Origin: Chloroflexota bacterium | Lineage (GTDB): Bacteria > Chloroflexota > Dehalococcoidia > DSTF01 > JACRBR01 | Direction of reading: 5' to 3' | Assembly (NCBI GenBank): GCA_037444005.1 | Contig: JBBING010000003.1 | Location: 15,006 to 79,005 of the forward strand | DNA length: 64,000 bases | In this document: positions 2,340 to 44,297 of the stretch, piece after piece | How positions within the stretch are numbered: position 1 is the first letter of the stretch | Layout of the letters: every line of letters begins with the position of its first letter | Notes under the pieces: generated by a model | Told to the model about the DNA's origin: nothing | Database searches by the model: none | Seen by the model: the letters and a program-made list of their open reading frames with translations, nothing else | Position numbers and translations under genes: made by a program

Positions 2340-3116
2340 TCACACCCGGGTGGCGTACACGAGCACGCGATAGCTGTAGTCGCGGCCCGACCATACGCCG
2401 CCGCACGTGATCAGCGTCACCGAGTCGACGCCCGTGGCCCGAAGGTACGGCGATGCGTCCTCGTACGGGGAGATGCGATAGATCTGCTGCACGGCGTACA
2501 CCAGCGGGCCGGTCGGCGTGTTCACGATGATCTGGTCGCCGGGGACCAGCGTCTCGATGTAGCCGAAGACGACCTTGCCTATCCGGACGTAGTCGACGTG
2601 GCCGGCGAAGACGGCGTTCCCGCCCTCACCCGGAAAGCCGCCGAGGCCGGGGTGGTTCGGGAAGTCGTACCACACCACATCCCATGGCCCGGAGGGGTTG
2701 GGCATCACGCCGCTGCGGGGCACGGCCCGGGACGACAGCGCGGCGTGTACACCTAGCTTCGGGATGGAGAGGCTGTACCCGGCGATGGAGCGGGCGGTGG
2801 TGACTCCCGGATCGTACGAACCGGAGCTGGAGTATGAGCCCCCGCCTGACGACGTGGTGGCCCCTTGTGGCGGAGGCGGAGGCGCTGGCGTCGGCGTGGG
2901 AGGAACCGGCGTCGGGGTCGGCGACGGGTACGCGAGGTCGCTCGCTGGATAGCCCGAGGCGAACCTGCTCGACGACGCGAACGGGCGCTCCGGCTCGGCG
3001 CCGCCCCGGTTCAGCGTGAACAGCGCGGCGCCCGCGGCGACGGCGACGAGCAGCCCGAGCACAGCGAGGGCCAGCCGGCCCCGGCCCGCGCTGTCGATGA
3101 TGCGTCGAATGGACAT
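2340..3116 (-). CDS. Sortase family protein (class E/F-like) with Pro/Thr-rich linker
   Basis: The C-terminal TLITCGG motif is the sortase active-site Cys, preceded by a His-containing beta-barrel region (AGHVDY). N-terminal TM anchor (LALAVLGLLVAVAAGAALF) followed by a PTPTPVPPTPTPAPPPPP linker. Start taken at MSIRRII. Confidence 0.7.
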   Translation of the reverse strand: MSIRRIIDSAGRGRLALAVLGLLVAVAAGAALFTLNRGGAEPERPFASSSRFASGYPASDLAYPSPTPTPVPPTPTPAPPPPPQGATTSSGGGSYSSSGSYDPGVTTARSIAGYSLSIPKLGVHAALSSRAVPRSGVMPNPSGPWDVVWYDFPNHPGLGGFPGEGGNAVFAGHVDYVRIGKVVFGYIETLVPGDQIIVNTPTGPLVYAVQQIYRISPYEDASPYLRATGVDSVTLITCGGVWSGRDYSYRVLVYATRV

Positions 3117-3225
3117 CGCCTCCTCCCCCGCTGAACTATCGGCTCCCGCGACTGCGATGTTCAGATGTTCAGGAGTATGCCACAAACGGGGACGCTCGTC
3201 GCCTCGTCCCGTGAACGAATCGCCC

Positions 3226-3648
3226 TTACGTCTGGAGGCGGGCGCCGCGAAGTCGGCCCATCAGGGAAACGGCGAGCCCAGCGGCGAGGCCAGTCGGCGC
3301 GCCGAGGAAGACCGCATGCGCGAAGACGAGCGCCGCCGCCCGCGCCGCGGGAGAGTCGAACGACTCGAAGAAGTCGAAGCGTTCGCCGCGCACGGCGTGC
3401 AGCACGACGCTCGCCGCCGCTGAGGTCGCCCACATGAGCGTGCCGAATGCGAGCGCGGCGATAACGGGAACCGCGGGCCGCCGAGCGACCGGAGCGCCGC
3501 GAAGCCACAGGAGGGTCGCCACGGCTGTGGCCACGCCCGCGACCGGCGGCTGGACGAACGGCCAGCGGCCGACGAATTCGGCGGAGAGGGCGAGGCCGAG
3601 AGCGGACGCGAGGGTCAGGGCGAGGGCGAACGCCTGGGTGCGGCCCAT
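3226..3648 (-). CDS. Hypothetical polytopic membrane protein (about 4 TM)
   Basis: 141-aa ORF starting 5 nt after the radical-SAM stop. Hydrophobic helices MGRTQAFALALTLASALGLAL..., no known motif. Confidence 0.5.
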   Translation of the reverse strand: MGRTQAFALALTLASALGLALSAEFVGRWPFVQPPVAGVATAVATLLWLRGAPVARRPAVPVIAALAFGTLMWATSAAASVVLHAVRGERFDFFESFDSPAARAAALVFAHAVFLGAPTGLAAGLAVSLMGRLRGARLQT

Positions 3649-3652
3649 CGCC

Positions 3653-4948
3653 TCAGCGGGCGGGGGCCTGCGCTTCGAAGAGCGCGATGGCTTCGTCGCT
3701 GGTGCGGTACGGGTCGGGCGCGCCGACGCCCGCTTCGCGGGCCGCCGGAGAGACGTAGACGCAGTAGGGTTCGCTCTCGAGGTAGTCGCCGGTGACGCCG
3801 AAGGCGCGCGCGCGCGAGCCGCCGCAGACGTCACGGAAGTCACAGAGGCCGCACTTGCCCTTCAGCTTCGTGTAGTCGCGGAGCTCGCGGAAGAGCGGAG
3901 AGTTGCGATAGATGTCGACGAAGCTCTGGGTGCGGACGTTTCCGGCCGGGATCTGGAGGAAGCCCGAAGGGCAGACGTCGCCGATGTGGCTGATGAACGC
4001 GAAGCCGTTGCCGTCGTTGACGCCCTTCATGGTCGACTGGCCCAGGCCGTCCGCGAAGCTGTAGCCGGCGCCGGTCAGGAACATTGAGCCGCCGGGGCCT
4101 GTCGGCGGTCCGCTCGCCTCGCCGCGGCGGGCGGCCTCCGCCGCCTCCTGGCGCCGTCGCTGGATGACCACCCGACGGTAATGCTGCGCCGCCGTGGAGC
4201 GCACGTCGAACGGCGCCACCTTCGAGAGGTCGTACATCCAATTGAAGACCTGCTCGTGCTCCTCGGGCGAGATCATGTCCTCGTGCGATCCGCGGCCCGT
4301 CGGCACCAGGAAGAAGAAATTGAGCATCACCGCCTTCCGCTCGGCGGCGATTTCGGCGATGCGGTCGAGCTCGTGCAGGTTGTGGCGGCTGACCGTCGTG
4401 CCGATCTGCAGCGACATGCCCAGGTCGGCCAGCATATCCATGATTTCGAGCGTCCGCTTGAAGGACCCAGGCGTCTTGCGGAAGGCGTCATGGCTCTCCG
4501 CCGTGGCGCCGTCGAGCGAAATATGCGTCCGGGTCACACCGGCGTCACGCGCCTTCTTCAGCCGCTCGCGCGTCACCAGCGCCGTCGCGGAGGGCGACAT
4601 CGCGACGCGGAGGCCCGACTGCGTCGCGTACGAGATCAGGTCGAAGAGGTCCGGCCGCATCATCGGGTCGCCGCCGGTGATGATGAGAATCGGGCCGCCG
4701 ATCTCGACGAGCTGGTCGATGAGGCGGAAGCCTTCCTCGGTGGTCAGCTCGCGGGGGTCGCGGCGCGGGATCGCTTCGGCCCTGCAGTGGACGCAGCGGA
4801 GCGCGCAGGCGCGAGTGGTCTCCCACGCGACGGTGAAGGGCGTCTTGTCGAAGTCGACGTCGGCGACCGGCGGTTTCGGGCGCGTCCCTCTGTCCGCGAT
4901 CTCCGAATGTCGCATCGTGGAGTCGACGATGGCGGGCCGGTCAGCCAT
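3653..4948 (-). CDS. Radical SAM / SPASM-domain protein (PqqE/AhbD-like maturase family)
   Basis: CxxxCxxC cluster (TTRACALRCVHC), GGDP glycine-rich SAM motif, and a C-terminal SPASM Cys cluster (GDVCPSGF...CGLCDFRDVCGGSRARAF). Start chosen at MADRPAIV (ATG 4948); an alternative ATG lies at 4915. Confidence 0.85.
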   Translation of the reverse strand: MADRPAIVDSTMRHSEIADRGTRPKPPVADVDFDKTPFTVAWETTRACALRCVHCRAEAIPRRDPRELTTEEGFRLIDQLVEIGGPILIITGGDPMMRPDLFDLISYATQSGLRVAMSPSATALVTRERLKKARDAGVTRTHISLDGATAESHDAFRKTPGSFKRTLEIMDMLADLGMSLQIGTTVSRHNLHELDRIAEIAAERKAVMLNFFFLVPTGRGSHEDMISPEEHEQVFNWMYDLSKVAPFDVRSTAAQHYRRVVIQRRRQEAAEAARRGEASGPPTGPGGSMFLTGAGYSFADGLGQSTMKGVNDGNGFAFISHIGDVCPSGFLQIPAGNVRTQSFVDIYRNSPLFRELRDYTKLKGKCGLCDFRDVCGGSRARAFGVTGDYLESEPYCVYVSPAAREAGVGAPDPYRTSDEAIALFEAQAPAR

Positions 4949-25762: not shown

Positions 25763-27054
25763 CCGCGCGCGGCCCGTTCCGCTGGGGAGCGGCGCTCGTC
25801 GCGGCGGTCCTCGCGCTCGGCGCGATCGCCGGGCTTTCGCGCAGCGTCGGCGCGCAGACGCTGCACGTCGACAGCGTCGAGGCGACGAACGCGTTTCCCG
25901 CGGGCGCGGTGTTCTCCATCTTCGCCCGGATCCCTGAGCCTCCGAAAGAGGTGCGCCTGCGGTACAGCATCGCCCCCGACGGCACCGAGGCGATGCGCGT
26001 GGCGGAGTGCTCGGGGATGAACCCCATCGGCTGTCGCGCCACCGTGGGCGACACGTTGGACACGTTTATGATCCCGGGCGCCGAAGTGACGTTCTCATGG
26101 GAGTTCACGCTTCCTGACGGCACGCGGCTCACTACCGACCCGCAGCGCTTCGTCTACGAGGACACGCGGTTCGAGTGGAACACGGAGTCGGCCGGCAACG
26201 TCACGGTCTACTACTACGGCTCCAATCGCGACCTGGCGCGCCGCGCGCTGGCGGCTGCGGAGGAAACGCTGGACCGTCTCGGAGGCATGCTCGGCGTCCG
26301 CGTGGCCTTCCCTGTCAAGGTCTTTCTGTACGAAGACGCCTCTACGATGAGGCCCGCCATTCTGTCCAACCCGCGCGCGGGCGTGGTGACGCTGGGCGAG
26401 GTCTACTTCTCGGATACGGCGATGGTGGCGGCAGACGTCGCGCCCGAGGACGTGACCCGGCACGAAGTCGCGCACATCGTGATCCGCGAGGCCACGCGCG
26501 GGCCATTTGGTGTGCCCGCCTGGCTCAACGAGGGCACGGCGGTCTGGGCGCAGGAGGAACCGCTGGGCGGCGAACTGGATGCGCTCGACGCCGCCATCGC
26601 GCGGGACCGCGTGCTCCCGCTTCAGGTGTTGAGCTCTTCGAGCGCGGCGGGCAATCCCGACACCGTGAGTCTGTTCTACGGGCAGTCGTACTCCGTCGTG
26701 AACTATCTCATCACGACGTACGGCGAGGAGAAGTTCCGTCAGCTCTTCGCGGTGTTCAAGGAAGGCGCCACCACAGACAAGGCCCTGCGCACCGTCTATG
26801 GGCTGGGCGTGCGGGAGCTCGAGAACGCCTGGCGGGCGTCCCTGGGCCTGCCGCCGAGGGCGATTCCTTCGCCTACCGTGGAAGCGACTCCTGCCGGCAC
26901 GCGGACGCCTGTCGGCGCGACCTCGGGCCAACAGCCTGCGGGCGACGACGGTGGGTTCCCTGTGGCGGTCGTGGTGGCGATCGCCGCCGGCGCGCTCGCG
27001 TTGGCGGGCGCCATCGTGGGGCTGGGCGTCATCGCTGCGAGGAAGGCGAGCTAG
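25759..27054 (+). CDS. Secreted zinc metallopeptidase (gluzincin-like HEXXH...NEG), C-terminal TM anchor
   Basis: GTG overlapping the prfB stop. Signal peptide, then HEVAHIV plus a downstream WLNEGTA motif, and a C-terminal hydrophobic helix VAVVVAIAAGALALAGAIVGLGVIAA. Confidence 0.7.
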   Translation: MTARGPFRWGAALVAAVLALGAIAGLSRSVGAQTLHVDSVEATNAFPAGAVFSIFARIPEPPKEVRLRYSIAPDGTEAMRVAECSGMNPIGCRATVGDTLDTFMIPGAEVTFSWEFTLPDGTRLTTDPQRFVYEDTRFEWNTESAGNVTVYYYGSNRDLARRALAAAEETLDRLGGMLGVRVAFPVKVFLYEDASTMRPAILSNPRAGVVTLGEVYFSDTAMVAADVAPEDVTRHEVAHIVIREATRGPFGVPAWLNEGTAVWAQEEPLGGELDALDAAIARDRVLPLQVLSSSSAAGNPDTVSLFYGQSYSVVNYLITTYGEEKFRQLFAVFKEGATTDKALRTVYGLGVRELENAWRASLGLPPRAIPSPTVEATPAGTRTPVGATSGQQPAGDDGGFPVAVVVAIAAGALALAGAIVGLGVIAARKAS

Positions 27055-28574
27055 CGGTCGGTGCGGGCCGCGCCCGCGCTCTCCGATGGGCTCTCGCGGC
27101 TCGTGGGCAGCTCCTCGGCGCCGTAGTACCCCGGGCGATATTTGAAGACGTTCACCGTGCTGCGGGCCACGTCGGGGACGTAGAAGAACCGGTAGCCCTG
27201 CCCCTTGAGGCGCAAGAAGGTCTCGTACTCGAGAAGCCAGACGTAGAGGATGTCCCGCTTGTGGTCGATGGTCACGCCTCGATCCGAGAGCATGCTGATG
27301 GCGCGGTAGTCCTTCTCGAGAATGGCGTTCTCGAACCGGTCGTGGTTCAGCACCGCGAAGTGGGGGTACGTGAAGCCCATCATCACGACTGAGTGCTCGG
27401 GGATCGGGATGTCGTCGCGGACCTCGTTCGCGAACTCGATCTGGTTGTCCATGGTTTCCAGGGACGACAAGAGCATCCCTTTTCCGACGCGGGCGTTGGT
27501 GAAGGCCTCGAGGTTGATTTCGTCGCCCGGAGACGTGAGGTCGACGAACCCCGCGAGCAGGATCACGGCGAGGGTCGAGACGAGAAGCCATCGTGGGAAG
27601 TAGCGCGCCATCAAGAAGAAGCCGAAGGGGAAGAGGGGGATGAGGTACGCGATCTCGTGCGGCAGCCGCGTGAAGGAAGCGAAATACAGCACGATGACGC
27701 TGAGCCACATCCACAGATGCGGCTCGCGCCGCAGGTCCGACGGCAGGCGCGCGAACTTCGGCAGAGCGATCCCCAGGGCCACCAGCGTCCATATGGCGCC
27801 GACGAGTCCCAGGCCGTCCTTCCCCAGCAGCCTCAGGAAGTTCAGCCACGGCACCTTCTGGTCGTAGAAGTTCCAGAAGTCGAGCTTGTAGACCCACAGC
27901 ACGGGAGCGAACGCCACGGCCGTGACGACCGTGGCCGCGGCGGCGAGAGGGGCGGCGTCGCGGGTTCGGCCGGAGCGCCACAGGTACAACGCGAGGGGCA
28001 GCGCCATCCCGAGGTACGTCAGGCGGAAGCCCGCGGCGACCCCCACCAGGGCGCCGGCCAACAACGGGCGCCTCCTCAGGGCCGCGAGGTACGCCGCGAG
28101 CCCGAATGTCAGCGCCCACATGTAGTCCATCGTGGTGACGCTGTTGATCCAGAGCAGCGGCGCGAAGGCGAAGGCCACGGTCAGCGCTCCCTGCGCGGGC
28201 AGACGGAGCTCTCGCACGAGCTGCGCGAAGACCCAGACCCCCGCCAGCGACGCGAGAACCGTCGAGAGGTTCGTGGCGGGCGCGCCGCCCTTGATGAACG
28301 CGGCGGTCACGAATTCGTGCAGGGGATACCCGGGCAGCCGCGAGGGCCAGTATTCGCCGTGGTCCCACAGGTAGTTCGCCGTGAGCGCGACACGCCAGGC
28401 GTCGGGGTCGGTGCCGTACCCGTGCCAGAGCCACGGCACGCGCGAGAGGACAAAAGCGACCGCGAGCGCCGCAAAGGCGAGGGGCCGTGTAAAGTCGAAC
28501 TCGAGGGCTCGTTCGAGGAGCCCCGAGACGGCGAGCGCGGGACTGCGTTCGACGGAAGGCGCCTCCGCGGTCAT
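27051..28574 (-). CDS. GT-C superfamily membrane glycosyltransferase (PMT/ArnT/PimE-like)
   Basis: 507-aa polytopic membrane protein with an N-terminal periplasmic loop carrying Asp motifs (GTDPDAWR) and many TM helices. It is the last gene of the PI/PIM-like operon. Confidence 0.65.
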   Translation of the reverse strand: MTAEAPSVERSPALAVSGLLERALEFDFTRPLAFAALAVAFVLSRVPWLWHGYGTDPDAWRVALTANYLWDHGEYWPSRLPGYPLHEFVTAAFIKGGAPATNLSTVLASLAGVWVFAQLVRELRLPAQGALTVAFAFAPLLWINSVTTMDYMWALTFGLAAYLAALRRRPLLAGALVGVAAGFRLTYLGMALPLALYLWRSGRTRDAAPLAAAATVVTAVAFAPVLWVYKLDFWNFYDQKVPWLNFLRLLGKDGLGLVGAIWTLVALGIALPKFARLPSDLRREPHLWMWLSVIVLYFASFTRLPHEIAYLIPLFPFGFFLMARYFPRWLLVSTLAVILLAGFVDLTSPGDEINLEAFTNARVGKGMLLSSLETMDNQIEFANEVRDDIPIPEHSVVMMGFTYPHFAVLNHDRFENAILEKDYRAISMLSDRGVTIDHKRDILYVWLLEYETFLRLKGQGYRFFYVPDVARSTVNVFKYRPGYYGAEELPTSRESPSESAGAARTDR

Positions 28575-28578
28575 CGGT

Positions 28579-29385
28579 TCATCGTCCCGGCAGGATGAGG
28601 CCGCTCTGCGTCCTGCGAAACGAGGGGGCTTCTTCCGAAGACGGGCGGGGCGGCGGCCCGACCGGCGTCGCCGGGCCGACGTGACGCCGCGACGTCGTGG
28701 CGAGGGGCGACGGCTCCTCCGCAGACGCTTCGACGAGCGCGTCCGCCAGGTCCTCTTCGAACTCGACCTCGCCGACCAGCGCGATCCTTCCGTCCATGAT
28801 GGTGGTCGGGACCTCGCGCACTTCGTGACGCTCCATGAGGTCGGGGAACTCGGTGACCTCGACGACGGACGCATGCACTCGCGGGCTGGCGAGCGCGAGC
28901 CGCGCCGCGATGAGCGCCATCGCGGCGGAATGCGGGCACGGGGGCGCCACCAGGACAGTAAGGTCGACGTCGCGGCGCATCTTTTTGAGGATTCGCGCCG
29001 TCTCTCTCGAGACCATGGGCTCGCCATGGGACGCCGCGATGATCGCGTCGACGAAGGCCGGGAACAGGTCGGCCGCGGGGATGCCGAAGAATCGCAGCGG
29101 ACGGTTCAAGATGCCCCGGACGACGATGCCGGGAATGCGGTCGACGCCGAGCCGCGCCGCGGCGGCGCGCTCTTCGGAGAACTCATGCACGGTGAGGACG
29201 ATGCGCTCGGACAGGCTCGCCAACTCGCGGAGCATCTTCCGCACGTCTTCGCAGAAGGCGCACTCCTCGCGACCGGGCAGGACCAGCTTCGAGGGCCGCT
29301 GGGTGAAGAAATCGATGCGAACTCTGCCGCCGAGCTCTCTCTCGAAGAGCGATCGAATCGCTTCCTGCTCGCGCAGCGGGATCAC
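28579..29385 (-). CDS. PDO/glutaredoxin-like thioredoxin-fold protein (two Trx units: CAFC and CPHS)
   Basis: Two thioredoxin-fold repeats with CAFC and CPHS active-site motifs. The ATG overlaps the upstream stop (ATGA). Confidence 0.75.
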   Translation of the reverse strand: MIPLREQEAIRSLFERELGGRVRIDFFTQRPSKLVLPGREECAFCEDVRKMLRELASLSERIVLTVHEFSEERAAAARLGVDRIPGIVVRGILNRPLRFFGIPAADLFPAFVDAIIAASHGEPMVSRETARILKKMRRDVDLTVLVAPPCPHSAAMALIAARLALASPRVHASVVEVTEFPDLMERHEVREVPTTIMDGRIALVGEVEFEEDLADALVEASAEEPSPLATTSRRHVGPATPVGPPPRPSSEEAPSFRRTQSGLILPGR

Positions 29386-30017
29386 TTCGGGCCTCCCTCG
29401 GAATCTATGGAATCGGCCTCACGCAGGGCCTGCCGCACGGCGAGCAGCCGCTGGACCGCGGTGAGGTTCGCCAGGACGGCGAGCGCCCAGAGGGCGATGC
29501 GCACGGCGGGCGGCCAGGCCTGTCCTATGATAAGGGCCGCGCCCGTCAGGAGCACACGTTCTGCCCGCGTGAACAGCCCTTCGCGCAGGTCGACGCCGAC
29601 ACCCTGGGCCCTGGCTCGCACGTAGCTCACGAGCACCGAGCCGACGACGGCGGCGAAGATGACGCCCGCCATCGTGGCGTCGCTGTCGCCGGCGGTGTAG
29701 TGGTACAGCAGCCCGCCGAGGACCGCGGCTTCCGAAAGCCGGTCGAGCACCGAATCGTACACGGCCCCGAAGCGCGTCACGCGGCCCGTCGCCCGGGCCA
29801 GCGCGCCGTCGAGCAGATCCAGCGCGCTCGCCGCGAGCGTCGTCAGGCCGGCCGCGAGAAACCATCCCGATCCGGCGAAGGCGCCGGCGCCGACGTTGCC
29901 CAGAAAGCCCAGCGTCGACAGCGCGTTGGGCGTGATCCCCATTCGCGCCAGGACAGCTACGACCGGATCGAGGACCTGCGCGGGCGCCCGGCGCGGAAGC
30001 AGTTGCAGCGACGGCAT
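29382..30017 (-). CDS. CDP-alcohol phosphatidyltransferase (phosphatidylinositol-phosphate synthase-like)
   Basis: CDP-OH_P_transf motif DLLDGALARATGRVTRFGAVYDSVLDRLSE (D-G-x2-A-R...G...D-x3-D). Its position beside a PimA-like GT4 and ino1 mirrors pgsA1 in actinobacterial PI/PIM loci. Confidence 0.85.
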   Translation of the reverse strand: MPSLQLLPRRAPAQVLDPVVAVLARMGITPNALSTLGFLGNVGAGAFAGSGWFLAAGLTTLAASALDLLDGALARATGRVTRFGAVYDSVLDRLSEAAVLGGLLYHYTAGDSDATMAGVIFAAVVGSVLVSYVRARAQGVGVDLREGLFTRAERVLLTGAALIIGQAWPPAVRIALWALAVLANLTAVQRLLAVRQALREADSIDSEGGPK

Positions 30018-30018
30018 C

Positions 30019-31176
30019 CTATCGCCCCGCTTCCTGCGCCGCGTCGAGCGTCGGGTGTCGCCGAATGACCGCGCGCTCGTAGAGGAGACGCTCGTAGTAC
30101 GAGAGGACTTGCTGCGCGATCCGCCGCCAGTCGTACTGTTGCACGTGCTGCCGTCCTTCCTGGCTCATGCGGCGGCGCCGCTCCTCGTCCAGCAACAGGT
30201 CCGTGAGGGCGAAAGCGAGCGCCTCTGCGTCGCGAGGCGGCACGAGCACCCCCTGGACGCCATGGGTGATGACGAGCGCGAACCCCTCGATGTTGGACGC
30301 GACGATGGGCAGCCCCGCCGCCATCGCTTCGAGCAGCACGATGCCCTGACTCTCGTAGCCCGTGTTGGGCGCGCAAAAGACGTGACAGGACTGGTAGTAC
30401 CGGGGCAGTTCGTCGAACGGGACGTGACTCCGGAAGATCACGTCGCGCACGCCGGCGCGCCGCATGCTGCGCTCGTAGCGCTCGAACGAACCGGCGCCCA
30501 CCACCACGAGCCGGGCCGTCGGGATGCGCTGCTTCACGCCTACGAACGCGCGCAGCAGATAGCTCAGCCCCTTCCGCCGCTCGGGACGCCCCACGAAGAG
30601 GATGTTGGGGCCGCCGGCGAGCTCCGGCAGTGGTTCGCGCGGCCTGGCGAAATGTTCCACATCGATGCCGTTCGGGATGATGTTGTAGTAGCCGGGAAAA
30701 TACCGTGAGACGTGACGGGCGGCCGCCGCCGAGACCGCGATCTTGCCGTCGAGGCGCCGAAACCAGCGCCGGATGAGTCGCCTCCCGTACACGTAGTAGA
30801 CGTTCGACTCCGCGGCCGCGTGGAAGGTGCCGACGTTGACGGCTTCCGAATAGCGCAGGAACTGAATCGGGAGCTGGGGCACGAACGGCTCGTGGACGTG
30901 GACCACGTCGAACTGATGCTCGGCGAGCAGGCGGCGGACCGGTTTCGCCATGCGCAACGACAGGGAGATGCGGGCGATGGACCCGCCGACCCGCCAGGGA
31001 ATCGGCCGTCCCAGCGCCACCACCGGGCAGTCCGCCGCCATCGGCTGGCCGGACGACGGGCCCACGATGAGGCACTCGTGGCCCCGGCGCACGAACTCGC
31101 GGGCGAGGTGCCGGATGTGGTTGTTCACACCGCCGGGTACCGCGAGGTCGTAGGGCGAGACGAGAGCGACCTTCAC
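30019..31176 (-). CDS. GT4 family glycosyltransferase (PimA-like phosphatidylinositol mannosyltransferase)
   Basis: GT-B fold with an N-terminal MKVALVSPYDLAVPGGVNNHI and a C-terminal E-x7-E region (ESQGIVLLEAMAAGLPIVAS). Confidence 0.85.
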   Translation of the reverse strand: MKVALVSPYDLAVPGGVNNHIRHLAREFVRRGHECLIVGPSSGQPMAADCPVVALGRPIPWRVGGSIARISLSLRMAKPVRRLLAEHQFDVVHVHEPFVPQLPIQFLRYSEAVNVGTFHAAAESNVYYVYGRRLIRRWFRRLDGKIAVSAAAARHVSRYFPGYYNIIPNGIDVEHFARPREPLPELAGGPNILFVGRPERRKGLSYLLRAFVGVKQRIPTARLVVVGAGSFERYERSMRRAGVRDVIFRSHVPFDELPRYYQSCHVFCAPNTGYESQGIVLLEAMAAGLPIVASNIEGFALVITHGVQGVLVPPRDAEALAFALTDLLLDEERRRRMSQEGRQHVQQYDWRRIAQQVLSYYERLLYERAVIRRHPTLDAAQEAGR

Positions 31177-31925
31177 GGCAGCACCCGCTTGATGAAGCTA
31201 CGGACCGTCGGAATCCAGCCCTGGGCGCGCGGCGTGGCCATCAGGCCTCGCCATTGTTGGACCGCGATGTTCCTCCATCCGAGGTCCGAGAGCCGGGGGT
31301 ATCGCCCCGCGACCGCGCGGGTGGCGCGAGCCTCGATGGCGCGCCTGAGGTCCTGCGCCGTGGCCCCTTCGAATTCCGTGTACGCGCTCCCGATGGCCTG
31401 CAGGAAGTGAGCGTCGCTGCCGGCGATATCGGCGAGATGGTAGCGGGCGCCGTTCAGCGATGACGCCTTCCGCATGCCGATGCGGCCCGCGGGGCCGAGA
31501 TTCACGGTCTCGATGCCGTCGAACGCGACCCCCGGAACGCCTTCGGCGAGGATGCGCTCGATAACGCGCTGCCCGACGCTGCGCGTCAGCCAGCTCATCG
31601 GATGGGGAATGATGCAGAGGCCCCCCAGGCGATGCACGGCGGCGAGCGTCTCGCGGAGGGGCCGCAGGCTCGGGACCGGCTCCTCGATGAACAGCGCGAT
31701 GAGATGGCCTTCGATCGTGGTGATCTCCTCGCCCACCACCAGGTCGAAGCGATAGCGTCCGGCGGCCCATCGCTCGCGGGCGTCCAGAGCGGCGTCGAGC
31801 CGATCGTGCTCGGTGATCGCGATGACCGAAAGGTCCGTGCGCTCCTCGACATACTCGAGGATTTCTTCGACGCCGGCCATGCCGTCGCCGTAGGTGGTGT
31901 GAATGTGGAGGTCCGCCTTGCCCAC
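31173..31925 (-). CDS. PHP (polymerase/histidinol-phosphatase) domain phosphoesterase
   Basis: Metal-binding motifs ADLHIHTTYGDG, ITEHD, IIPHP and SDAH. The GTG at 31925 avoids overlap with the upstream acyltransferase; a longer ATG 32027 form would overlap it by 94 nt. Confidence 0.8.
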   Translation of the reverse strand: MGKADLHIHTTYGDGMAGVEEILEYVEERTDLSVIAITEHDRLDAALDARERWAAGRYRFDLVVGEEITTIEGHLIALFIEEPVPSLRPLRETLAAVHRLGGLCIIPHPMSWLTRSVGQRVIERILAEGVPGVAFDGIETVNLGPAGRIGMRKASSLNGARYHLADIAGSDAHFLQAIGSAYTEFEGATAQDLRRAIEARATRAVAGRYPRLSDLGWRNIAVQQWRGLMATPRAQGWIPTVRSFIKRVLP

Positions 31926-31933
31926 GTCGCGCG

Positions 31934-32896
31934 CTATTGTACCGCAGGGGTCGCCGGCGACCGGCCTTCGGCGGCCGAGCCTTCCGTCGAGGGTTCTTCC
32001 CAGCAGATGCGCTCGACCACGGTCCACTGACCTGGGTCGGCGGCCATGTGCTCCTCGAAGACCGCCATGAGCCGCGCGAGGTTTTCCCTGAGGTCTCGTT
32101 CGCGGTCGCCGGTGACTGTGAGGGGCATGGCCGGGCCGAGCTTCGCGTGCAGCGTGTAGCGTCCGGTGCGGCGAACCATCGCCGGGAACACGATCGCGCC
32201 CGTGCGCAGGGCGAGGTCGATGACGCCAGTGGGCGCGCGCATCATCCTGCCGCGGAATGGGACCATGACGCCCGTCCCCTGAATGTCGCGGTCGAACAGG
32301 ACGGCGACGATCTCTCCGCTGCGGAGCCGGCGGATAGCCTCCTTGATGCCGTCGAAGCTGGCCGTGCGGTAGATGTGGCCGTGCGCCTCGCGGAGCCGGT
32401 GCGTGAGATCCGAGAGCTGTCGCGGCTGGAGGGGTTCGGTCAGCGCGAACACGCGGATGCCGAGCGGGGCCAGCCCCTGAACAGCGATCTCGGGGTTCCC
32501 GTAGTGGGCGCTGGCCAGCACCACGCCCTTCCCGGTGGCGGCAGCCGCTCGCAGATCGTCGATGCCGTCGATGACGAGCCGCTTCCTCAGGAATTCGTCG
32601 AGGTCCATCCGCGGGAAGGCGATGAGGTCGGCGTAGTAGTACGCGGTATGACGGGCGGCTCTCCGGGCAGCGCGATCGATAGCGTCCTCGCTCGCGCCCG
32701 GGCCGAGCGCCAGACGCATGTTATGTTGCAGCGAGGCCCTGATGCCCGGGGCGAAGCGGTAGACGCGGTCGGCCACGAAGTCGGCGATGGCGTATCGCGC
32801 GCGCAGCGGCAGCCGCCCGATCGTCTGATAGACGATCCAGAGCAGCCAGAACTTCCAGATGCCGCCGGCGCTGCGACGGCTTCCCGGGAGGCTCAC
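31934..32896 (-). CDS. LpxL/HtrB-family lysophospholipid acyltransferase (PIM acyltransferase-like)
   Basis: N-terminal TM (WKFWLLWIVYQTIG) and an acyltransferase region containing HYGNPE and AVLFDRD. Confidence 0.8.
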   Translation of the reverse strand: MSLPGSRRSAGGIWKFWLLWIVYQTIGRLPLRARYAIADFVADRVYRFAPGIRASLQHNMRLALGPGASEDAIDRAARRAARHTAYYYADLIAFPRMDLDEFLRKRLVIDGIDDLRAAAATGKGVVLASAHYGNPEIAVQGLAPLGIRVFALTEPLQPRQLSDLTHRLREAHGHIYRTASFDGIKEAIRRLRSGEIVAVLFDRDIQGTGVMVPFRGRMMRAPTGVIDLALRTGAIVFPAMVRRTGRYTLHAKLGPAMPLTVTGDRERDLRENLARLMAVFEEHMAADPGQWTVVERICWEEPSTEGSAAEGRSPATPAVQ

Positions 32897-33765
32897 TCGG
32901 CAGGCTCCTCGGCCGGAGGCGCCGCTTCATCGAACCACGACGACGCCCACATCCGCCGGAAGATGTACCACTGTTCGGGGTGTTTGCGCACCTGCCGTTC
33001 GAGGGAACGCATGATGGCCTGCGTCAGCGCTCGCACATCCGCCTCCTCGTCGCCCGTCGGCTTGAAGCGGAGGCTGGCGTCGATCACGGGGATGACGTGC
33101 GTCGGGTCGTCGTCACCTCTGAGGACGACGGCCGGCATCACGGCCGCGCCCATGCGCAGCGCCAGGCGCGCGGGCCCGGCGGACACGGTTGTCGGCGCGC
33201 CGAAGAACTCGACCGTCACGCTTTGGCCGGGCGCATCGACATCGATGAGCAGCGCGACCATCTCGCCGCGGCGCAGCGCCCGGACCAGGCCGGGGCCCAC
33301 ACCGGTGACAGGAACCACCTTCATGCCCAGGCGCTCGCGCGACTGAAAGACCAGCTCGGTGAGCTTCGGGTACGGAAAGACGTCGCCGACGGCGTTGACC
33401 GGGTAGTCGTAGGCGGCGAGAGAGGCGGCGCCCAGATCCCACACGCCGAAGTGCAGAGTAACGATGACGACGCCCTTGCCCTGACGATACAGGGCGTTGA
33501 GATTGTCCCAATCGTCGAAGCGCAGCCGGCGGCGGATTTCGTCGCGGGTCATCGTGGGGAAATGGACGAAATCGACGACGAAGCGGCCGAAGTTGCGGAA
33601 CGCGCGGCGGGCGACGCGGTCGACCTCGCGGCGGTCCCGGGTCGCGAGCACGCGGGCGAGGTTCTCGTTGAGGCTGCGCCGCTGGCGCCGGAACAGCGGA
33701 TAGCAGATGTCCGCCACCCGGGCCGCCACGAAATAGGCGGTCCGAAGGGGCAGCGGGCGCATCAC
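32893..33765 (-). CDS. LpxL/HtrB-family lysophospholipid acyltransferase (second paralogue)
   Basis: Paralogous to the downstream gene (HFGVWD, ALLIDVDAPG). Its stop overlaps the next start. Confidence 0.8.
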   Translation of the reverse strand: MMRPLPLRTAYFVAARVADICYPLFRRQRRSLNENLARVLATRDRREVDRVARRAFRNFGRFVVDFVHFPTMTRDEIRRRLRFDDWDNLNALYRQGKGVVIVTLHFGVWDLGAASLAAYDYPVNAVGDVFPYPKLTELVFQSRERLGMKVVPVTGVGPGLVRALRRGEMVALLIDVDAPGQSVTVEFFGAPTTVSAGPARLALRMGAAVMPAVVLRGDDDPTHVIPVIDASLRFKPTGDEEADVRALTQAIMRSLERQVRKHPEQWYIFRRMWASSWFDEAAPPAEEPAE

Positions 33766-33823
33766 GAGAATCGTGAGGCGAAACAGCCAGTAGATGACGC
33801 GCCAGAGGTTGTAGCGCCAGAAA

Positions 33824-35185
33824 TCAGGCGGTGGCTGCGACCCCTGCGATGAACTCCTCCGTGAGCCGACGCGCTTCCTCGTCGCTGTATTGCCGGGGCG
33901 GCGACTTCATGAAGTACGCCGAGGGGCCCTCCAGCGGCCCGCTCAGGCCCCAATCGAGGGCAAGCTTACAGCACCGGATCGCGTCGATCACCACGCCGGC
34001 CGAGTTGGGGCTGTCCCACACCTCCAGCTTCAATTCGAGGTTGAGCGGCACGTTACCGAAGGTCGTGCCCTCCATCCGGATGTAGCACCACTTCCGGTCG
34101 AGCAACCACGGCACGTGGTCGCTCGGCCCGACATGGACGTCGTCCGAGGGCAGTTCGTAATCGAGCTGAGAGGTGACGGCCCCCGTCTTCGAGATCTTCT
34201 TCGATTCGAGACGCTCGCGCTCGAGCATGTTCAAGAAGTCGGTGTTGCCCCCGAAGTTGAGCTGGTACGTCCGGTCGAGGCGCACACCACGGTCTCGGAA
34301 CAGCTTCGTGAGCACCCGGTGGACGATGGTGGCGCCGACCTGGGACTTGATGTCGTCGCCGATGATCGGCAGGCCCGCGTCCTGGAACCGGCGGGGCCAG
34401 TAGCCGTTGGGGTCGCGGGCGATGAAGACAGGGATGCAGTTCACGAAGCCGCAGCCCGCCGCCAGCACCTGCTCGACGTACCACTTGGTGGCCTCCTCCG
34501 AGCCCACCGGCAGGTAGTTCACGACCACGTGCGTCTGGGTCTCCTTGAGGATGCGCACGATATCGGCGGTGCCGCCGGGCGCTTTGTAGATGACCTGCGA
34601 GAGGTACTTCCCCAGGCCGTCGTGGGTCATGCCGCGGGCGACGGTCACGCCCGTGAGAGGGACGTCGCAGAACTTGTAGGTGTTGTTCGGCGGGGTAAAG
34701 ATGGCCTCGGCGAGATCCTTGCCGACTTTGTTGGCGTCGATGTCGATGGCGGCGACGAAGCGGATATCGCGCACGTGGTAGCCGCCCAGGTTGACGTGCA
34801 TCAAGCCCGGCACGAACTCGTCCTCGCGGGCGTCCTGGTAGAAGTAGACGCCCTGGACCAGCGACGACGCGCAGTTGCCGATTCCGATGATGGCGACGTT
34901 GATGGGGCCCTTGTCTCCTGGCATGAGTGCCTCCTGCGAAGGGCGCCGCCCCCGCGTAGGCCGGGCCGACTCCGGCTCGAAGAGCTCGCGCTCCGGCAGC
35001 CCGAGGATGTCGGCGACCGCCTCACGAAAGCTGCGGCTGGGCCGCTTGGCGCCCGACTTTACCAGCGAGAGGTAGCTCTCGCTGAATCGCTGTCCGCGCC
35101 GGGCCAACTCGGCCAACAGCCATCGCTGCGTCCGGCCCTGCGCTTCCAGCACGTCGAACAATCGCGGCTTTACTCGATCCGGCAT
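33824..35185 (-). CDS. ino1: myo-Inositol-1-phosphate synthase with in-frame N-terminal HTH-XRE domain (internal RBS+ATG at 34924 gives stand-alone MIPS)
   Basis: The MIPS core runs from [25 protein letters not shown] to the end (366 aa). The 87 in-frame codons upstream encode a canonical HTH_XRE ([44 protein letters not shown]). A perfect AGGAGG RBS lies 5 nt before the internal ATG at 34924. Confidence 0.85.
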
Positions 35186-35199
35186 GAGAATCGGACGAT

Positions 35200-35217
35200 G
35201 GTAAAGATAGCCTTACC
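35200..35217 (-). promoter_or_regulatory. Imperfect palindrome GGTAAGGCTATCTTTACC 15 nt upstream of the HTH-ino1 start (candidate operator)
   Basis: Inverted repeat GGTAA-N8-TTACC read on the minus strand, immediately 5' of the ATG at 35185. Confidence 0.3.
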
Positions 35218-35278
35218 ACGGTCGAGCATACGTCACCGCAGCGGCGCCGTCAATGGTGAAGTCGGGGTAAAGTTCGGG

Positions 35279-36187
35279 TCAGGACGGGCGAAGGTGCGAG
35301 GCGAGCCCTTCGCGGAGCGGCGTTAGGCGCAGCTCCAGCGCCGCCAGCAGAGGGCCGTTGTCCGCCACCGCGCTGTGCGTGATGAAGTCCACCGCGTCCG
35401 CAGAGAGTGGGGGATTTGGCAAGAGCGAGGCCACGCGACCGATGAGCTTCCCGAGGACGACGGGCTGATGCAGGATGAACCGGCGCTTCCCGGCGACCTC
35501 GAGGGCGGTGCGGATGACCTCGTCCATCGTCATGACGTCCGGCCCGCCGATCTCGAACGTCTGGTTGACGCACGCGGGCGTCTGCAGGGAGAGCACGACC
35601 GCTTTCGCCACGTCTTCCACGAACACCGGCTGCATGAGCTGCTTGCCATCGCCGAAGGTCGGCACGAACGGGAGGAACTTCGCGAAGCCCAGGAAGCGGT
35701 TCAGTGCCACGTCTTCAGGGCCGTACACCCAGGTCGGCCGGAAGATGGTAAACGGGATGCCGCTGGCGCGGATCGCCTCCTCGGCCTGCCACTTGAACCG
35801 GAACCAGTGCTTGTCGGCGTCGGGCGCGGCGCCAACGCCGCTCAGGTATACGATGCGCTTGACCCCCGCCGCCTTCGACGCCTCCACGAGGTTGACGGTT
35901 CCCCGGTAGTCGACGTTCTCGAACGTCCAGCCTTTCCGCGGGATTTCGATGGGGGACGTCGGAAACTGAACGCAGTTGATCACCGTGTCGACGCCGCGGA
36001 GGGCGGTGGTGAGGGATGCGGGATCCGTGACGTCGCCGCCGCGCGCCTCCAGGGTGTACTCGGGAAAGCGCTGCGCTACCTTCGAGGGGATGCGCGAGAG
36101 CACCGCCACCGGCGCGGGCCGCTGGCGCATCAACTCGCGCACGATGGCCGATCCGATGAATCCGGTGCCTCCCGCGACGAGGATCAT
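35279..36187 (-). CDS. NAD(P)H-binding atypical SDR / NAD-dependent epimerase-dehydratase family protein
   Basis: MILVAGGTGFIGSAIV Rossmann motif preceded by an AAGGAG RBS. NmrA/complex-I NDUFA9-like length and motifs. Confidence 0.8.
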   Translation of the reverse strand: MILVAGGTGFIGSAIVRELMRQRPAPVAVLSRIPSKVAQRFPEYTLEARGGDVTDPASLTTALRGVDTVINCVQFPTSPIEIPRKGWTFENVDYRGTVNLVEASKAAGVKRIVYLSGVGAAPDADKHWFRFKWQAEEAIRASGIPFTIFRPTWVYGPEDVALNRFLGFAKFLPFVPTFGDGKQLMQPVFVEDVAKAVVLSLQTPACVNQTFEIGGPDVMTMDEVIRTALEVAGKRRFILHQPVVLGKLIGRVASLLPNPPLSADAVDFITHSAVADNGPLLAALELRLTPLREGLASHLRPS

Positions 36188-41544: not shown

Positions 41545-41621
41545 TGGCGCCCTCGGCAGGACTCGAACCTGCGACCTACTGATTCGAAGTCAGGCGCTCT
41601 ATCCGACTGAGCTACGAGGGC
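41545..41621 (-). tRNA. tRNA-Arg (anticodon TCG)
   Basis: Reverse complement folds as a cloverleaf: acceptor GCCCTCG/CGAGGGC, D-arm GCTC..GAGC, anticodon loop CTTCGAA, T-arm GCAGG-TTCGAGT-CCTGC, and an encoded CCA. Confidence 0.85.
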
Positions 41622-44220: not shown

Positions 44221-44297
44221 TGGGGTGGACGGAGGGATTCGAACCCTCGATCTCCTGGGCCACAACCAGGCGCATTAACCGCTATGCAACGCCCACC
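44221..44297 (-). tRNA. tRNA-His (anticodon GTG) with genomically encoded G-1
   Basis: Acceptor GTGGGCG/CGTCCAC with one G-U pair, an extra 5' G opposite discriminator C73, anticodon loop TTGTGGC, T-loop TTCGAAT, and an encoded CCA. Confidence 0.88.

Follow-up and report, generated by a model that had tools for sequence, protein, structure and literature searches.

A helix-turn-helix domain fused in frame to inositol-1-phosphate synthase in a Chloroflexota genome: a probable autoregulating enzyme with two translation starts

The window analysed here is a stretch of 64,000 nucleotides of a Chloroflexota bacterium (GenBank assembly GCA_037444005.1, contig JBBING010000003.1, positions 15,006 to 79,005), in which one gene at 33824..35185 encodes a helix-turn-helix (HTH) domain and an inositol-1-phosphate synthase (MIPS, the ino1 product) in a single polypeptide. 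All genes, gene parts and promoter elements of the window described below lie on the minus strand. The gene is a single open reading frame (ORF) of 453 codons, with an ATG start and without an in-frame stop, and its product consists of three successive sections: (i) an XRE/Cro-C1-type HTH domain of five helices, residues 9-68 (34982..35161); (ii) a flexible linker, residues 70-94 (34904..34978); (iii) the MIPS part, for which a short coding sequence of 366 residues without the HTH is also inferred (33824..34924) from the alignments to M. tuberculosis Ino1 and to TIGR03450 given below. A preliminary description of this DNA, prepared from the letters alone, had placed the HTH in frame with MIPS with no stop between them, and the ORF indeed runs through both parts. 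The G+C content of the window is about 67% and long spurious ORFs are common in it.

The structure of the N-terminal domain has been predicted with AlphaFold from the family alignment. Helices were found at residues 9-15, 20-29, 36-44, 51-61 and 65-68, with a predicted local distance difference test (pLDDT) score of 92-96 over residues 9-68. According to AlphaFold and Foldseek these residues form the five-helix fold of lambda-repressor-like proteins, with helices 2 and 3 as the HTH. The Foldseek search matched the domain to CylR2 (1utx) with a template modelling (TM) score of 0.77/0.84 and a root-mean-square deviation of 1.3 Å; for CylR2, dr_2454 and the Xre antitoxin (3omt) the TM scores were 0.75-0.84 with a probability of 1.00, and EspR, C.AhdI and phage CI were among the other XRE matches. 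Comparison of the family profile with PDB sequences returned ClgR (3.4e-4), SinR (6e-4) and also EspR. The Pfam profiles remain below their gathering thresholds, with 22.3 bits (E = 1.6e-4) against 27 for HTH_31 and 15.4 bits (E = 0.019) against 23 for HTH_3, and a precomputed HTH match (PF13560) is present in only 1 of 120 homologues. The domain had been called a textbook XRE HTH in the preliminary description; this holds for the fold but not for the sequence profile, and the domain is best classed as a divergent XRE subfamily.

The HTH region is well conserved. Fourteen residues are invariant among 33 diverse sequences, namely G17, Q20, R21, W22, G31, S35, Y38, S40, K43, G45, P49, F53, L68 and F69. 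Over 71 sequences, pairwise nucleotide diversity in the region amounts to 0.24 for the first codon position, 0.18 for the second and 0.47 for the third. The diversity at the third position is 2-2.6 times that at the first two, a pattern typical of a translated region under constraint.

Residues 88-453 match the M. tuberculosis Ino1 (1GR0) end to end (E = 1.5e-146), the alignment covering residues 7-361 of the short form with 355 aligned positions. The DSPNSAG segment and a second segment of the catalytic region are intact in this alignment. Pfam Inos-1-P_synth (PF01658) was identified at residues 284-392 with 125.8 bits against a cut-off of 27 (E = 1e-36). NCBIfam TIGR03450, the mycothiol-type INO1 model, aligned to residues 95-446 with 531.8 bits, under its cut-off of 638; by this score the enzyme part is homologous to the TIGR03450 INO1 proteins but falls outside the actinobacterial equivalog. 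The MIPS domain is probably active as an enzyme, given the full-length match to the M. tuberculosis Ino1 and the presence of a CDP-alcohol phosphatidyltransferase gene in the same operon. Within the enzyme core, AlphaFold confidence drops below 50 over a stretch of 55 residues (310-364, about 34094..34258) that contains a conserved segment. If this stretch were ordered only on ligand binding, it could be one way in which catalysis is coupled to DNA binding.

The comparison of ino1 loci in related genomes, which the preliminary description had proposed, returned the fusion with great regularity. The N-terminal HTH recurs in 119 of the 120 best homologues of the protein collection, which are 436-485 residues long with 72-95% identity. 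A search of metagenome contigs with a profile of the HTH only detected 80 loci; three of them run off the contig, and the other 77 of 77 continue in frame into MIPS, the frame being held in loci down to 54% G+C. The one split case, locus L164 (the L numbers are our locus labels), has an HTH ORF of 68 residues followed by a MIPS of 379 residues at 3001-4363. Two truly separate genes have been ruled out for this locus, since a 1-nt frameshift lies inside the HTH and the remainder of the domain can be read on in the following frame, all on a single long-read contig. The frameshift is probably an assembly error, and a real pseudogenised HTH is possible. No in-frame stop thus separates the two parts at any informative locus, and the fusion is almost certainly real and functional.

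The HTH of the fused gene has also been searched for as a separate protein. No genuine stand-alone copy emerged when 1.8 billion representative proteins were searched exhaustively with the profile; 16 proteins scored above 100 bits and the next one at 65 bits. These 16 apparent stand-alone HTHs were rejected, as each of them derives from the fused gene and is a fragment at a contig end, a frameshifted piece or a chimera. A word-indexed search for the HTH gave just 17 short partial proteins and is of no use for estimating the family size. The nearest true stand-alone relative, P0138 (95 residues, L166 3272-3559), adjoins a phage-type integrase and a divergent HTH gene and is not located near ino1. 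This setting, apparently a mobile element, hints that the HTH was recruited from a Cro/CI-type regulator of a mobile element.

Among the best 80 MIPS loci of species-representative genomes, mostly Chloroflexota, 78 have neither a fused nor a neighbouring (within 4 kb) HTH of the fused-gene kind, and a search with hidden Markov models and six-frame translations revealed no separate HTH gene beside the unfused MIPS of loci L003-L080. In a neighbour-joining tree the fused enzymes group together with a few unfused sequences interspersed; the tree is quick and too crude to tell a single origin from secondary losses. As far as record titles and a few NCBI names show, the assemblies with the fusion are labelled Dehalococcoidia or Chloroflexota, apart from one short contig binned as Acidobacteriota; the fusion has so far been found in mostly Chloroflexota-labelled assemblies. 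Literature searches for an HTH-MIPS fusion, or for MIPS in Chloroflexota, returned no relevant description. These results bear out the earlier opinion that such coupling of an HTH to ino1 is unusual.

The linker is assigned on the basis of pLDDT, which falls below 50 at residues 73-90, and of its variation among relatives. The 68 unique linkers come in 24 different lengths between 18 and 63 codons, and none of them breaks the frame. The linker contains an internal ATG, Met88 (34922..34924), preceded by a perfect Shine-Dalgarno (SD) sequence AGGAGG (34930..34935) and the 5-nt spacer CACTC; the energy of the duplex with the anti-SD is -10.3 kcal/mol. Both elements lie where the preliminary description had located them. 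Of 76 fused loci, 70 keep an in-frame linker ATG. In five others the linker is devoid of ATG, GTG and TTG (L099, L101, L105, L108 and L145), and a further one has GTG alone (L146); in the five, the fusion alone must therefore supply the encoded enzyme.

The linker ATGs differ sharply from the other in-frame ATGs of the same genes. At least 4 nt of the AGGAGG core are found at -18..-4 before 91% of linker ATGs, compared with 5.5% of 348 in-frame ATGs of the enzyme core; where a linker holds several ATGs the one with the best SD was chosen, which affects few loci. The mean anti-SD duplex energy is -10.0 kcal/mol for the linker ATGs and -2.9 kcal/mol for the core ATGs (Mann-Whitney p = 2e-38). 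The GGAG/GAGG motifs peak at -18..-7, with 102 occurrences in 63 unique sequences and background levels elsewhere, and the spacing to the ATG is 5-11 nt. The fused genes in general therefore contain a conserved in-frame internal start with its own ribosome-binding site. The SD of the HTH start is weak among relatives (mean -6.2 kcal/mol, motif in 43% of loci), and the HTH start of the window (ATG at 35185) has no SD motif, with a duplex energy of +0.3 kcal/mol. In several relatives the operator described below runs straight into the first ATG. The sequence GGTAAAG stands immediately 5' of the HTH ATG in many relatives (L002, L087, L103, L111, L114, L128 and L151); it is identical to the left half-site of the operator consensus and may act as a third half-site or stand in for a ribosome-binding sequence.

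Translation probably also initiates at Met88, as judged from the conservation of its SD and ATG. The NCBI annotation pipeline starts relatives at the internal Met, as in MBF6599762.1 and MEX2247684.1 (380 and 354 residues), and JGI annotation gives proteins of about 450 residues. On our reading, one mRNA would give little of the long HTH-MIPS protein and more of the short MIPS. The preliminary description had left the choice between a regulator-enzyme fusion and a read-through product accompanied by internal initiation. The comparative data favour fusion and internal initiation together, the frame being kept at 77 of 77 loci and an SD-ATG pair being present in the linker of about 90%.

Upstream of the HTH start, a promoter scan of 33600-35400 gave a lone promoter-like match, the sigma-70-like TTGACG-17 nt-TATGCT at 35225..35253. 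The predicted operator op2, GGTAAGGCTATCTTTACC (GGTAA-N8-TTACC, 35200..35217), begins 7 nt past the -10 element and should therefore cover the transcription start. Its palindrome extends to TGGTAA...TTACCA (35218..35199). On the other side of the promoter a weak op1-like region (35255..35283) consists of ACTTTACC at 35273..35266 and CTTCACC at 35261..35255, with a matrix score of 7.1 bits at 35266-35283. This region abuts the -35 element and overlaps the stop codon of the upstream epimerase-like gene. The blocks conserved among the window and its two nearest relatives are ACTTTAC, the -35 and -10 elements and the right half of op2. A search of 33500-35600 against Rfam produced no meaningful match, and a riboswitch-type leader is therefore unsupported.

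The operator assignment has been made with an 18-nt matrix (consensus AGTAAAGAAAACTTTACC) derived from 68 upstream regions, the window and its two closest relatives being left out. Over both strands of the 64-kb window the best match of this matrix is 35200-35217, with 18.3 and 15.3 bits on the two strands, and the next locus reaches 8.1 bits. The palindrome that the preliminary description had regarded as a plausible operator is thus ranked first in 64 kb by a matrix from which it was held out. No other operator site above 8.1 bits was found in the window, and no further regulon members are named.

The upstream regions of the relatives share one layout, which the eye can recognise: an 18-nt element abuts a -35 of sequence TTGAC, some 17 nt separate the latter from a -10 element, and an inverted second element lies between the -10 and the HTH start. 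A strong op1, GGTAAAGTTnTCnTAAC, abuts the -35 in most other clades, and 56 of 67 relatives have TTGAC equally placed with respect to the operators. Two well-separated operator sites flank the promoter in 57 of 71 fused loci. A score of 10 bits or more is reached in the 120 nt preceding the HTH start by 63 of 71 fused loci, and by 10 of 2158 control windows, a count that is partly circular as the matrix was trained on the same regions; the tests on the window and on the unfused loci are independent of it. No site scoring 10 bits or more lies in the 350 nt upstream of the unfused MIPS genes (0 of 47 loci), so that the operators co-occur strictly with the HTH.

Across clades, the half-site of op2, TTAAC or TTTAC, tracks residue 34 of the HTH (V/I or F/L). 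The co-evolution of half-site and residue is suggestive, and it is confounded by phylogeny. The distances between the centres of op1 and op2 cluster at 43-44, 47-51 and 53-57 bp; this spacing has been set aside as evidence of looping, since the promoter geometry constrains the distances anyway. Taken from sequence comparison, binding of the HTH to the operator is probable, at a level of confidence slightly lower than that for initiation at Met88. That the binding represses rather than activates is the better supported of the two outcomes, by a modest degree.

The fused gene heads an operon whose downstream genes (28579..33765) were assigned by Pfam and keep the same order in the distant relatives L161/L162 and L165. 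They encode successively a first lipid-A-type acyltransferase (32893..33765), a second one (31934..32896), a PHP_C protein (31173..32027), a GT4 glycosyltransferase (30019..31176), a CDP-alcohol phosphatidyltransferase (29382..30017) and a thioredoxin-like protein (28579..29385). Family membership suggests that the operon specifies a lipid pathway of the phosphatidylinositol (PI)/phosphatidylinositol mannoside (PIM) type. The PHP_C gene is also found inside the operon in L161 (9310-10104) and L165 (10222-10929), between the acyltransferases and the GT4 gene, and its product could be the phosphatase turning phosphatidylinositol phosphate into PI. An ORF of 658 residues located 3' of the operon (27051..29027) overlaps the end of the thioredoxin-like gene and has a GT87 match below threshold (E = 4e-4). 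If real, this membrane mannosyltransferase-like protein would fit elongation of the PIM type. Two tRNA genes, at 41548..41621 and 44224..44296, are the sole Rfam matches above the gathering score in the window.

Together, these features are likely to describe an autoregulating enzyme-repressor, or trigger enzyme, made as two isoforms from one mRNA and placed at the head of an inositol-lipid operon. The sigma-70-type promoter at 35253-35225 would transcribe the operon for inositol phosphate and PI/PIM-like lipids. From the first ATG (35185), which has no SD, a small amount of the 453-residue protein would be made, with the HTH, a tether of about 25 residues and the full MIPS. The internal ATG (34924), with its perfect AGGAGG, would give the 366-residue MIPS, probably in a larger amount. 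The MIPS enzymes are tetramers, and long and short subunits should therefore co-assemble into mixed tetramers. The enzyme core may thereby supply the oligomerisation that small XRE domains need for binding to a palindrome. Pairs of HTH domains would bind GGTAA-N8-TTACC at the transcription start and, in most relatives, also the inverted second copy abutting the -35. Such binding would repress the operon, on which its first enzyme would thereby exert negative feedback. How many DNA-binding heads an oligomer carries would depend on the proportion of long and short subunits, and the feedback is perhaps tuned by this proportion or by a ligand of the enzyme; control by a ligand is speculative.

Several observations weigh against this interpretation and belong beside it. 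In the window and its two closest relatives op1 is weak, its 7.1 bits making 35266-35283 the fourth-best match of the window. Eight fused loci are without a recognisable operator (L097, L112, L119, L124, L131, L145 and L150, and L082 with a weak site). The HTH scores below the Pfam thresholds. The count of operators at fused loci is partly circular, and the linker ATGs were in part selected by their SD. The short isoform appears dispensable in some lineages, with 5-6 loci lacking the internal start. Finally, the sequences share phylogeny, so that the counts overstate the number of independent events. As to the eight operator-less loci, the reading frame is open far upstream in several of them, and such loci may be co-transcribed with the gene before them or be under another kind of control.

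Four other explanations of the locus have been weighed. According to one, only the fusion matters, and the internal SD and ATG are an unused relic of the original ino1 start, left behind when the regulator lost its stop codon. This would agree with the loci in which the linker has no start codon or GTG alone, where the internal start is dispensable, and with the K/A-rich stretch past the linker Met, which resembles the N-terminal tails of unfused MIPS. An unused relic, however, would erode as fast as the linker around it; the ATG is retained in 70 of 76 loci, with an SD at 5-11 nt in about 90%, although the linker varies freely from 18 to 63 codons. Pairing with the anti-SD is also far stronger at the internal site than at the HTH start, and the relic is considered improbable. 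To about the same degree it is unlikely that the HTH, although made and fused, is not a repressor of its own promoter but an activator, a regulator of other targets or a module for protein-protein contacts or localisation, the repeats belonging to another factor. Such a role would be compatible with the presence of just one strong site in the window and with the eight fused loci that have no site. The sites are nevertheless confined to fused genes (63 of 71 against 0 of 47 unfused) and are palindromic as expected for XRE dimers; they occupy the -35 and the transcription start, the classic positions of a repressor, and their half-site variant tracks a residue of the HTH.

The remaining two explanations deny the fusion itself and are both very improbable. 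The true start could be Met88, with the 87 upstream codons being a chance open frame or an untranslated leader, as is conceivable in a window with 67% G+C and many spurious ORFs, where the HTH start has no SD, the NCBI calls for relatives are 380 and 354 residues long and the Pfam scores are sub-threshold. The 14 invariant residues among 33 sequences and the excess of third-position diversity contradict it, as do the XRE fold predicted with pLDDT above 90 and a frame kept down to 54% G+C over 24 linker lengths. Alternatively, an error of sequencing or assembly could have removed a stop or shifted the frame between what are really two genes, a regulator and ino1. L164, with its separate ORFs, has the appearance of that arrangement, but it is a 1-nt frameshift in a single long-read contig, and the fusion is present at each of the other 77 informative loci and in 119 of 120 protein clusters, which come from many independent assemblies. 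The autoregulating enzyme-repressor with two isoforms therefore remains the reading that is preferred here.

Regulators are widely held to originate from enzymes that gained DNA-binding domains. The fused family seems to be a natural intermediate on the path from enzyme to regulator, in which a second start keeps untethered enzyme available. A more far-reaching proposal, put forward tentatively and with somewhat less than even confidence, is that it represents a natural missing link between enzymes and transcription factors. In this proposal an active tetramer would bear XRE heads in a number set by the two starts, an operator pair would clamp the promoter, and the cell would read the amount or ligand state of the enzyme; the family would then be an undescribed class of autoregulatory trigger enzymes. 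If true, it would constitute a new class of such enzymes controlling the synthesis of membrane inositol lipids. To our knowledge, almost nothing is known about bacterial control of inositol-lipid synthesis outside Actinobacteria, and a regulator apparently built into the first enzyme of the operon offers a testable handle in a mostly Chloroflexota-labelled and largely metagenomic group. Surveys of domain architecture would miss the fusion, because the HTH is sub-threshold in Pfam and NCBI starts the gene at the internal Met.

The closest functional parallels are the bifunctional enzyme-repressors BirA, NadR and PutA, in which a DNA-binding domain at the N-terminus is attached to an active enzyme and acts on the promoter of the enzyme's own pathway. 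The enzyme part of these proteins provides oligomerisation and senses a metabolite of the pathway. The protein of the window resembles them in joining a DNA-binding domain to a complete enzyme in one polypeptide, as found at 77 of 77 loci. It may also regulate its own pathway as trigger enzymes do, conserved predicted operators lying on the -35 and transcription start of its own promoter. The domains themselves are different: an XRE HTH and an NAD-dependent MIPS here, a winged HTH and a biotin ligase in BirA, an HTH and a nicotinamide mononucleotide adenylyltransferase in NadR, and a ribbon-helix-helix and a proline dehydrogenase in PutA. We know of no untethered enzyme made from a conserved internal start for any of the three.

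Two in-frame isoforms, with an internal start that has its own SD and with forms that can co-assemble, are known for IF2 (alpha and beta), ClpB and CheA (long and short). As in these proteins, the predicted short form of the window protein is without an N-terminal functional domain. The difference is that the domain lost here is the DNA-binding domain of a metabolic enzyme, so that the ratio of the forms would set the number of heads per oligomer.

In its enzyme part the protein is similar to the M. tuberculosis Ino1, and the accompanying genes of the operon, for a CDP-alcohol phosphatidyltransferase, acyltransferases and a GT4 glycosyltransferase, resemble the actinobacterial PI/PIM genes. 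The M. tuberculosis Ino1, like the unfused loci examined here, has neither an HTH nor GGTAA-N8-TTACC sites. In Corynebacterium and Mycobacterium, ino1 is regulated by the LacI-type protein IpsA (PMC3899939). The likeness to the present system lies in a dedicated control of ino1 and thereby of inositol-derived lipids of the cell envelope. In contrast to the HTH of the fused family, IpsA is a separate protein, unattached to the enzyme, and belongs to the LacI and not the XRE family. IpsA is encoded elsewhere in the genome and is an inositol-responsive activator of ino1.

With respect to architecture, BzdR consists of an XRE-type HTH, a linker and a shikimate-kinase-like domain that binds the effector without catalysis (PMC3602430). 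It has been argued that regulators arise by enzymes recruiting DNA-binding domains, and an intermediate with an active enzyme has been built artificially for BzdR (PMC3602430). The likeness is limited to the layout of HTH, linker and enzyme-derived domain, as the C-terminal domain of the window protein is MIPS and not shikimate-kinase-like. As with BzdR, the target of control would be a catabolic or biosynthetic operon. The kinase-like domain of BzdR is inactive, whereas the MIPS of the window matches a characterised Ino1 over its full length and, in some lineages, the fusion is the only encoded form of the enzyme. Judged by its sequence features, the fused family seems to present, in nature, the intermediate with an active enzyme.

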